Assembly: GCA_963701665.1 (NCBI GenBank)
Contig: OY969622.1
Span: forward strand, 1,088,001-1,152,000
DNA from: Candidatus Babeliales bacterium
GTDB taxonomy: Bacteria > Babelota > Babeliae > Babelales > JANWKD01
Length of the DNA: 64,000 nucleotides
Direction: 5' to 3'
Under the pieces are notes generated by a model. The model saw nothing but the letters and a program-made list of their open reading frames with translations. It did not search any database and was not told the DNA's origin. The position numbers and the translations under genes are program-made. This document shows positions 1-1,663 of this stretch, piece after piece (positions within the stretch are counted from its first letter, which is position 1; the number at the start of each line of letters is the position of its first letter).

Positions 1-1
1 T

Positions 2-187
2 CAAGGCGGTCAGCAAAATCCGCATGAAAAACAGGCTGAACAAGGAAGAAACCATAACCCTGGTAAGCATAACCAAAACCCACAAGGTCAACACCCAAAA
101 CATGAAGGTCACAAACCTCATGAAGGTAATAAACAACATGAAGGCAACAAGCAAGGTCAGAACCAAGGTAATTGGGAAAAAAAGTAA
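2..187 (+). CDS. 3' end of low-complexity Gln/Gly/Asn/His-rich hydrophilic protein (partial)
   Basis: Frame 2 is open from the window edge: QGGQQNPHEKQAEQGRNHNPGKHNQNPQGQHPKHEGHKPHEGNKQHEGNKQGQNQGNWEKK, TAA at 185-187; HEG repeats. Confidence 0.7.
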   Translation, partial: QGGQQNPHEKQAEQGRNHNPGKHNQNPQGQHPKHEGHKPHEGNKQHEGNKQGQNQGNWEKK

Positions 188-201
188 AACGGTCTAATGA
201 G

Positions 202-231
202 TAGGTAATAATAAATTTTTGTTATTACCTA
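202..231. promoter_or_regulatory. Inverted repeat (terminator or operator) upstream of the metallothionein-like ORF
   Basis: TAGGTAATAA-N10-TTATTACCTA followed by a T-rich stretch. Confidence 0.5.
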
Positions 232-263
232 TTTCCTATTTTTTTAAAAACCTGGAGAATACG

Positions 264-368
264 ATGAAATTCTTAATTTTTCATAAACCTGAAGGCTGTA
301 AATGCAACAACTGTAAAAACTGTAAATGCCAAGAAGGTAAAAACTGCGGCTGTTCTTGCTGCAAGTAA
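264..368 (+). CDS. Metallothionein-like Cys-rich microprotein (34 aa)
   Basis: GGAG RBS at 254-257; MKFLIFHKPEGCKCNNCKNCKCQEGKNCGCSCCK*; 9 Cys in CxC/CxxC/CC motifs; terminator follows. Confidence 0.75.
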   Translation: MKFLIFHKPEGCKCNNCKNCKCQEGKNCGCSCCK

Positions 369-655: not shown

Positions 656-1642
656 TCATTTCACTGTTTCGAAAATCTTTTTAACGGTCGCTAAACTTCC
701 CACAAGTGATGATGCTTCGTAAGGCACGACAATCATTTTATTATCCTTACCTTTTGTCATTTCAGGTAATGCTTTGATATAATGCATCGCAACCATATAA
801 GGAATTGGGTCCCCTTGCGGCACAGATTTTTGGATCATATCGATCGCCGATGCTTCTGCGTGTGCAATTTTTATACGTGCTTCTGCTTCACCCTGCGCGG
901 TCAAAACGCGCGCTTGAGATTCGCCCTCGGCACGTAAAATATCAGCCTCGCGCTCGCCTTCTGCTTCCAAAATTGCCGCGCGTTTTTTACCTTCAGATTC
1001 AAGAATGATCGCGCGTCTATCACGTTCCGCACGCATTTGTTTTTCCATGGCAATACGAATGTCGAGTGGCGGATTAACTTCTTGGAGTTCAACGCGGTTG
1101 ATTTTAACGCCCCATTTATCCGTTGCCTCATCCAAAATCAGTCGCAATTTTTCGTTAATAAGATCACGTGAAACGAGGGAACCATCAAGATCCATTGCCC
1201 CGATAACATTACGCAATGTTGTTTGCGTTAACTTTTCAATCGCTTCGGAAAGATTTGCTACTTCATAAACGGCAGATTTAGGATCAGTGATTTGATAATA
1301 AAGAAGTGCGTTAATTTCCATCGTTACGTTATCTTTAGTAATAACATTTTGCTTGGGAAAATCGTAGACCGATTCACGCAAGTCGATACGATTGGTAGAT
1401 TTTGTATAACGATAATAGCGCTTGCCATCACCTTCTGATGTAACGTAGGTCCAATGCACCATTCGTGTCGATTCAATAAATGGCACTACTATATGAATAC
1501 CTGCGCTCAAGGTACGATCATAGCGCCCAAAACGTTCAATAATGATAGTTTCTGCTTGCTTAACTAAATACACTGCTTTTGCAAGCACAATAAAAAAAAT
1601 GAATAACAGCGCAATAAGAATAATGCTAAATTCCAAAACCAT
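656..1642 (-). CDS. SPFH/band 7 (stomatin-like, QmcA-type) membrane protein
   Basis: N-terminal TM; IIERFGRY, QNVITKDNV, MEKQMRAERDRRA motifs; ATG at 1642 has a GAAGGGA RBS. Confidence 0.93.
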   Translation of the reverse strand: MVLEFSIILIALLFIFFIVLAKAVYLVKQAETIIIERFGRYDRTLSAGIHIVVPFIESTRMVHWTYVTSEGDGKRYYRYTKSTNRIDLRESVYDFPKQNVITKDNVTMEINALLYYQITDPKSAVYEVANLSEAIEKLTQTTLRNVIGAMDLDGSLVSRDLINEKLRLILDEATDKWGVKINRVELQEVNPPLDIRIAMEKQMRAERDRRAIILESEGKKRAAILEAEGEREADILRAEGESQARVLTAQGEAEARIKIAHAEASAIDMIQKSVPQGDPIPYMVAMHYIKALPEMTKGKDNKMIVVPYEASSLVGSLATVKKIFETVK

Positions 1643-1663
1643 TTCAAGTCCCTTCAAAAATAA

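Follow-up and report, generated by a model that had tools for sequence, protein, structure and literature searches.

Metallothioneins are described as proteins of about 3.5-14 kDa with a high Cys content in CxC, CxxC and CC motifs (PMC13578184), and the Zn3Cys9 cluster of mammalian beta-domains is described as using nine Cys (PMC10243857). Two prokaryotic metallothioneins with a studied function are named in a 2020 account (PMC7387436), and the scarcity of known prokaryotic members has been presented as a knowledge gap (PMC11705764). According to the latter source, mining studies have returned hundreds of divergent environmental candidates, mostly His-rich, and 20 of the 23 candidates tested raised copper or cadmium tolerance in E. 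coli.

The window (the whole stretch of 64,000 nucleotides that was analysed) comes from a genome of the Babeliales, here G000. A sequence-only reading had proposed that it encodes a 34-residue peptide with nine Cys in the last 23 residues, and translation of 264-368 gives the identical peptide. An orthologue is found in G001, the only other genome of the genus. Judged from their sequences, both peptides have the size and the Cys motifs that define metallothioneins.

Like the animal beta-domain (M3Cys9) and short eukaryotic metallothioneins, the peptide has nine Cys in CxC, CxxC and CC motifs, is Lys-rich and very small, and has no aromatic residues in the Cys region. It differs from eukaryotic metallothioneins in that it stands alone as one domain behind an N-terminal tail of 11 residues, and the orthologue has Cys8 plus a His with the middle Cys shifted. 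The nearest named cluster in an Atlas feature search was PF02067 (Metallothio_5), at rank 6 with a score of 0.80, which is a lead only; the orthologue gave no metallothionein lead. The earlier proposal that the pattern is closer to eukaryotic-type domains than to SmtA/BmtA stands in part. The composition is nearer to eukaryotic-type metallothionein domains and PF02069 is not matched, but neither Pfam nor PDB gave a eukaryotic family, and no homology or host transfer is claimed.

SmtA/BmtA and Pseudomonas PflQ2 (PF02069) resemble the peptide in being products of small Cys-rich bacterial genes. However, SmtA/BmtA are listed with about 60 residues and about 16% Cys (PMC13578184, Table 1), whereas the peptide has 9 Cys in 34 residues (26.5%). 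PF02069 (SmtA/BmtA) has no match in G000 or G001 at E <= 10, and the S. elongatus control passes the cut-off. Cyanobacterial SmtA has a linked SmtB/ArsR, whereas no SmtB/ArsR was found in either genome, and the low-confidence model of the peptide has no structural match to the zinc-finger core of SmtA/BmtA. The Pseudomonas-type metallothionein is described, like the Cys ORF, without a linked metal-responsive regulator (PMC7387436).

MymT of Mycobacterium tuberculosis is also a tiny, Cys-rich and at first unannotated ORF of an intracellular bacterium, and is described as binding up to six Cu(I) and conferring copper resistance (PMC7558416). The likeness is one of description; the Cys peptide has no Pfam or NCBIfam match and no CsoR-family regulator is found here. 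For a metallothionein ORF that escaped annotation in a bacterium living inside cells, MymT is the best precedent.

The Cys ORF and its surroundings

The genome is a single contig of 1.34 Mb with 37% GC and is 93.6% complete. The gene order at the locus is ABC-F ATPase, 70-residue His-rich ORF, hairpin, Cys ORF, terminator, REP-like repeat, convergent SPFH and NfeD.

1-187, forward strand: 3' part of a His/Gln/Asn/Gly/Lys-rich low-complexity ORF (70 aa, Cys-free, starting 25 nt before the window)
200-245, forward strand: hairpin with T-rich tail, whose 10-bp arms (202-211 and 222-231) match perfectly and are lengthened by G-U pairs
254-257, forward strand: Shine-Dalgarno-like GGAG, 6 nt before the ATG
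264-368, forward strand: metallothionein-like Cys9 microprotein ORF (34 aa, 3.8 kDa (3,831 Da), pI 8.8)
396-423, no strand assigned: bidirectional intrinsic-terminator-like hairpin with T runs on both strands, ending the Cys ORF and the convergent SPFH gene
430-645, no strand assigned: REP-like dispersed repeat, inserted behind the terminator and outside the Cys gene
656-1657, reverse strand: SPFH/Band-7 gene, convergent, a syntenic marker
1664-2107: NfeD gene, partner of SPFH

The local signals that the sequence-only reading had named are all present, namely the GGAG ribosome binding site, a clean terminator behind the ORF, a His-rich low-complexity ORF ahead of it that ends at 187 and is kept in G001, and a 10-bp-arm inverted repeat with perfect arms, although this repeat is terminator-like. 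The Cys ORF stops at a TAA that is directly followed by a second TAA. Its Cys residues are at positions 12, 14, 17, 20, 22, 28, 30, 32 and 33, and it has seven Lys and no Arg. The 11 residues of the N-terminal tail include two Phe. The 396-423 hairpin folds with z = -5.0, and none of 200 shuffles is equally stable.

The density of Cys is exceptional in this genome. The 595 intergenic segments contain 1,341 ATG-started ORFs of 20-99 aa, a count that includes nested starts, and this is the sole ORF with nine Cys in 23 residues. In 20 sets simulated with an order-3 Markov model, of about 1,131 ORFs apiece, no count goes above seven. A longer form starting from a TTG at 219 was rejected, as its frame is broken in strain X4 by a 4-nt deletion at 244 and the orthologue begins at the equivalent ATG; in strains X6 and X10 the net change upstream of the ATG stays in frame and is uninformative on the TTG start. 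An AlphaFold model of the peptide, with metals omitted, is of low confidence (pLDDT 61.9, pTM 0.24). Two fold searches with it gave no match, and these nulls carry little weight because such a model is uninformative.

The upstream ORF has about 10 His (counted by eye) and no family match. Its counterpart in G001 has 72 residues and the same C-terminal WEKK, and its profile matches only these two of the 261 genomes of the phylum. One of the 14 sequencing runs is an RNA run, and a contig from it spans the His-rich ORF, with an in-frame 3-nt insertion, and ends before the Cys ORF. Ahead of the His-rich ORF lies a promoter-like element, read by eye, that is conserved in G000 and G001; no internal promoter was found for the Cys ORF. 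The 200-245 hairpin folds as RNA at -17.8 kcal/mol (z -2.8). In G001 a hairpin and T tract of unrelated sequence are found in the same place (z -5.0). Since the hairpin and T tract are conserved in place while the sequence of the repeat diverges, this element is likely the terminator of the His-rich ORF, and the inverted repeat at 202-231 was rejected as a metal operator. The Cys ORF lies behind this hairpin, so its expression likely needs read-through or an unseen internal promoter.

In an Rfam search no score came close to a gathering threshold. The neighbours of the Cys ORF include no gene or regulator related to metals, and no protein of the ArsR (PF01022), Fur or CsoR families was found in G000 or G001. 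The two MerR-family proteins of G000 have 0 and 1 Cys, and the one with a single Cys scores best as HspR; no metal-sensing MerR was found in this genome.

The REP-like repeat at 430-645 is missing from this site in G001 and apparently also in strains X10 and X11, and is thus a recent insertion. It is also found at 2182-2290. BLAST gives 48 places genome-wide, and a 28-nt core has 15 exact and 29 near-exact copies. Outside the window, positions 646248-653389 of the contig (G000:C1, L131) hold an island-like group of recombinase-like, viperin-like radical SAM, NUDIX-like and methyltransferase-like genes, in which the recombinase motif was read by eye and the viperin-like radical SAM is below the NCBIfam cut-off.

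Conservation and distribution

The G001 orthologue has 37 residues (4,201 Da), 8 Cys (21.6%) and a single His immediately preceding the first of them, and it retains CxC, CxxC and CC motifs with a GRAVY of -1.18. It has an AAGGA upstream of its ATG and is located between the same ABC-F and SPFH genes, which are 67% and 87% identical in the two genomes, and behind the same His-rich ORF. In an ungapped alignment six of the nine Cys have equal spacing (the N-terminal CxCxxC and the C-terminal CxCC), while the three middle Cys differ in position and the spacers change. Both orthologues thus have nine possible metal ligands, Cys9 in one and Cys8His in the other. With six of nine spacings kept, a fixed geometry like that of the beta-domain is not established. 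A flexible cluster would be easier to reconcile with fixed ends and a mobile middle than would a rigid zinc finger or an Fe-S site.

Fourteen sequencing runs were found and eight were compared (the small-share runs X3, X5, X7 and X12-X14 were left out, and habitat labels carry no weight here). The strain contigs have a depth of 2-3 and are mutually related, differences near contig ends were not counted, and X1 and X2, at 99+% identity, possibly represent the source sample. Five of the compared runs, from five studies, vary inside the Cys ORF. Substitutions are seen at eight sites, five of which are silent (codons 3, 12, 17, 26 and 28, three of them Cys codons), and the replacements K2E, I5F and K21Q cost no Cys. 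Under neutral models with kappa of 1-8, the probability of at least 5 silent changes in 8 is 0.003-0.048, and that of all three Cys-codon changes being silent is 0.001-0.019. The sole indel within the ORF is an in-frame 6-nt insertion after Cys17, whereas of the 8 flanking rows with an indel, 7 would shift a reading frame. On these comparisons, small in number, the Cys ORF is a real gene under constraint with its Cys codons protected. Conservation of the Cys residues in related genomes, suggested as a check in the sequence-only reading, is therefore seen for six of nine spacings in G001 and for every Cys in the strains, but it does not extend to the three middle Cys or beyond 2 of 261 genomes.

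These two genomes are the only ones in the phylum set that contain the gene by its profile. With the two-sequence profile, 11 further genomes gave matches at E 0.003-0.09 and all 12 loci were rejected as off-frame or stop-containing. A search of 61 relatives with the single peptide returned, apart from G000, 6 weak matches (E 0.04-0.23), and inspection placed none of them in a small Cys-rich gene. No free-standing Cys-rich ORF was found downstream of ABC-F in the relatives G002-G004, or around SPFH in G002-G004 and 80 metagenome SPFH loci (identity at most 75%, all outside this genus). A word-indexed search with a 49-codon open frame gave no candidate, and a related-locus search of genome contigs matched 225 stretches, none of which was confirmed. 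Loose DNA patterns run over the phylum gave matches (at least 565 for one pattern) that, among those inspected, were mostly off-frame Ala/Val codon noise. One such pattern misses the window's own gene, and diverged homologues are therefore not excluded by it.

In protein collections, HMMER found no match among 1.84 billion representative proteins at E <= 0.001, and neither the exact peptide nor its orthologue is present among about 15 billion predicted proteins. These nulls are partly artefactual, since gene callers skip such ORFs and both peptides are missing from the collection. No Pfam family matched either peptide at E <= 10, with the HMMER filters dropping weak matches, and there was no NCBIfam match and no PDB metallothionein match for the peptide. 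A full-text literature search, with subscription journals and supplements outside its scope, returned no report of a Dependentiae metallothionein and no description of a Babeliales or Bacteroidota Cys-peptide family.

Other Cys-rich small ORFs

When 185,579 genomes were scanned for a DNA motif, 40 stretches came back, which comprise the orthologue, 12 Bacteroidota loci, a Micavibrio locus, a collagen-like protein and noise, and a viral scan returned 14 stretches, 13 of them noise. The small ORFs are the following.

About 1440-1620 in each of L132, L134, L136, L137, L139, L141, L146, L150, L151, L154, L155 and L162: Bacteroidota 12-Cys ORFs
L166, 1495-1581, reverse strand: free-standing Micavibrio ORF of 28 aa with 9 Cys, a good ribosome binding site and a CxCxCCK end, between cysS and an amidohydrolase gene
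L254, 1492-1554, reverse strand: free-standing phage-contig ORF of 20 aa with 9 Cys

The Bacteroidota ORFs form a conserved, metallothionein-like family, encode 37-46 residues and come from Psychroflexus, Arenibacter, Mesonia, Kaistella and other hosts. Ten of the 12 stand directly before a gene for a SigZ-like ECF sigma factor, and one is also beside a CobW gene. The peptides belong to no Pfam or NCBIfam family and their own profile finds none in the protein collection at E <= 1. They may make up a system that is broader, and easier to test, than the Babeliales peptide. The Bacteroidota, Micavibrio and phage peptides (20-46 aa, no Pfam family) are like the Babeliales peptide in having CxCxNCK and a C-terminal CxCC, but the gene context is different. 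An hhalign comparison of the Babeliales peptides with similar CxC...CxCC peptides gave a probability of 39% over 10 columns. In a shuffle test with this set, which was chosen by its shared motif, the scores of the two Babeliales peptides are equalled by 50 and 218 of 1000 shuffles. Homology of these peptides to the Babeliales peptide is unproven.

Other Cys-rich genes were observed along the way. Another Babeliales genome, G062, has an 84-residue metallothionein-like Cys-rich ORF with a signal peptide (L173, 1396-1650, reverse strand) next to a DUF305 gene; DUF305 is presumably linked to the copper-binding CopM. In G000 itself, intergenic segments of contig C1 near 442862, 759455 and 992218 contain unannotated ORFs of 79-91 aa with 6-8 Cys in 23 residues. 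These three have signal-peptide-like starts and are candidate exported Cys-rich small proteins. The collagen-like protein is from Gottfriedia (L153, 214-1785, reverse strand), and its N-terminus is a long tandem CxCxxC repeat.

Metal handling and the role of the peptide

The protist setting assumed in the sequence-only reading fits the lineage, as the Babeliales are a lineage of protist parasites. Members of the Babelota reportedly live only inside cells, as parasites of phagotrophic protists (PMC12172432), and Chromulinavorax is described as entering via food vacuoles (PMC6561590). Amoebae are reported to load zinc into phagosomes, where ZntA-deficient E. coli die faster (10.1101/356949). CDF, HMA, FeoB, Cu/Zn-SOD and MNIO were found in none of the five family genomes, with positive controls. 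The single P-type ATPase of G000 scores best as a Mg-translocating IIIB type, and G001 has two P-type ATPases. No heavy-metal P-type pump (in G000) or CDF exporter was found; RND (Cus/Czc), ZIP, CorA, multicopper oxidase, Csp and phytochelatin synthase lie outside this search. The lack of CDF and HMA genes leaves room for a chelator. However, G003 and G004 (93-99% complete) have neither CDF nor HMA and yet have no match to the Cys peptide, which is therefore not a family-wide substitute for pumps.

The peptide is probably a minimal, single-cluster, cytoplasmic and metal-folded metallothionein-like chelator. Its 34 residues would stay unfolded in the cytoplasm until they wrap a few soft metal ions (Zn, Cd or Cu), and one small metal-thiolate cluster of about three Zn/Cd or several Cu(I) would form. 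The cluster peptide could then act as a minimal metal and thiol buffer. We infer the disorder, the metal binding and the stoichiometry, and also the cytoplasmic location, the last from the lack of a hydrophobic signal stretch, especially in the orthologue. Transcription may start at the conserved promoter-like element ahead of the His-rich ORF and reach the Cys ORF by partial read-through of the 200-245 hairpin. As no metal-sensing regulator was found, expression would be constitutive or stage-dependent and not metal-induced. The physiological purpose could be survival of Zn or Cu in the protist food vacuole, or buffering, or dormancy. Defence against metal poisoning by the host is plausible but unsupported, since family relatives without CDF or HMA show no detectable peptide, and it is rather doubtful. 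Even if true, metal binding need not mean defence, as the Pseudomonas metallothionein is described as not needed for metal resistance (PMC7387436). A bolder version is unlikely. It holds that the His-rich disordered protein and the Cys9 metallothionein form a newly arisen two-peptide metal sink, dosed by terminator read-through, that is the main Zn/Cu vacuole defence of a genus without exporters or sensors, and that the peptide is one of many independent, database-invisible CxC...CxCC mini-metallothioneins.

Some of the same features could be read differently. In a dormant or extracellular stage the peptide could be a redox or structural component, either a thiol pool or a disulfide cross-linker, and form a stress pair with its His/Gln/Gly-rich neighbour. 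Chlamydial elementary bodies are held by disulfide cross-linking, and the candidate exported Cys-rich small proteins elsewhere in the genome are in line with this. So are the failure to find any metalloregulator and the fact that the Cys ORF always follows a low-complexity, hydrophilic ORF whose distribution, 2/261, is identical. The Pseudomonas metallothionein is described as induced in stationary phase and as aiding survival of starvation (PMC7387436). Co-expression is made less likely, however, by the terminator that separates the two ORFs, and the lack of a signal peptide and the very hydrophilic orthologue place the peptide in the reducing cytoplasm, where its thiols would take up Zn or Cu anyway. 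A search for glutathione synthesis (PF03199) was uninformative, with no match in any control. A redox or structural role is distinctly unlikely. It is quite improbable that the peptide is a small Fe-S peptide that resembles the FeoC C-terminus and serves to sense or carry iron or oxygen. The sole PDB sequence match is to residues 49-70 of E. coli YhgG (1xn7), which we take to be FeoC, and the peptide contains a CxxCxxC run (C14, C17 and C20), but the match is not significant (E = 0.45), the two-sequence profile matches nothing and the third Cys of the run is missing in G001. In FeoC, encoded in the feo operon, the conserved Cys motif is part of a winged-helix domain, whereas the peptide has no DNA-binding domain and FeoB was found in none of the five family genomes; eight or nine Cys also exceed what one cluster needs.

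A RiPP precursor or a cysteine-sensing leader peptide might, like this peptide, have a Cys-rich core behind a short N-terminus with few Cys, and polycysteine leader ORFs have reportedly been found in mycobacteria (10.1101/834739). This reading is largely refuted and extremely improbable: MNIO was found in none of the five genomes, no radical SAM was found in G001 and the single one in G000 is viperin-like and far away, no transporter or protease is nearby, and a leader would have nothing on the same strand to attenuate, as a terminator and a convergent gene lie downstream. An ORF that is non-functional or barely translated and kept by chance in one genus could explain the presence in 2 of 261 genomes, the position behind a terminator, the lack of relatives in 1.84 billion representatives and the RNA-run contig that stops before the ORF. 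It is very improbable given that six Cys, the ATG with its ribosome binding site and the open frame are kept despite 67% identity of ABC-F, that strain changes are skewed to silent with every Cys kept, and that the Cys density is above all simulations.

The weight of the metallothionein-like reading is limited by the narrow distribution, the uncultured host and the recurrence of similar unannotated Cys peptides in many lineages. If it is true, the peptide would be a cheap and synthesisable test of the minimum size of a single-cluster metallothionein, at 34 residues, regulator-free and Cys-only. It would also test if metal sequestration can take the place of efflux in a protist host, for an obligate intracellular bacterium in which no Zn or Cu pumps were detected.
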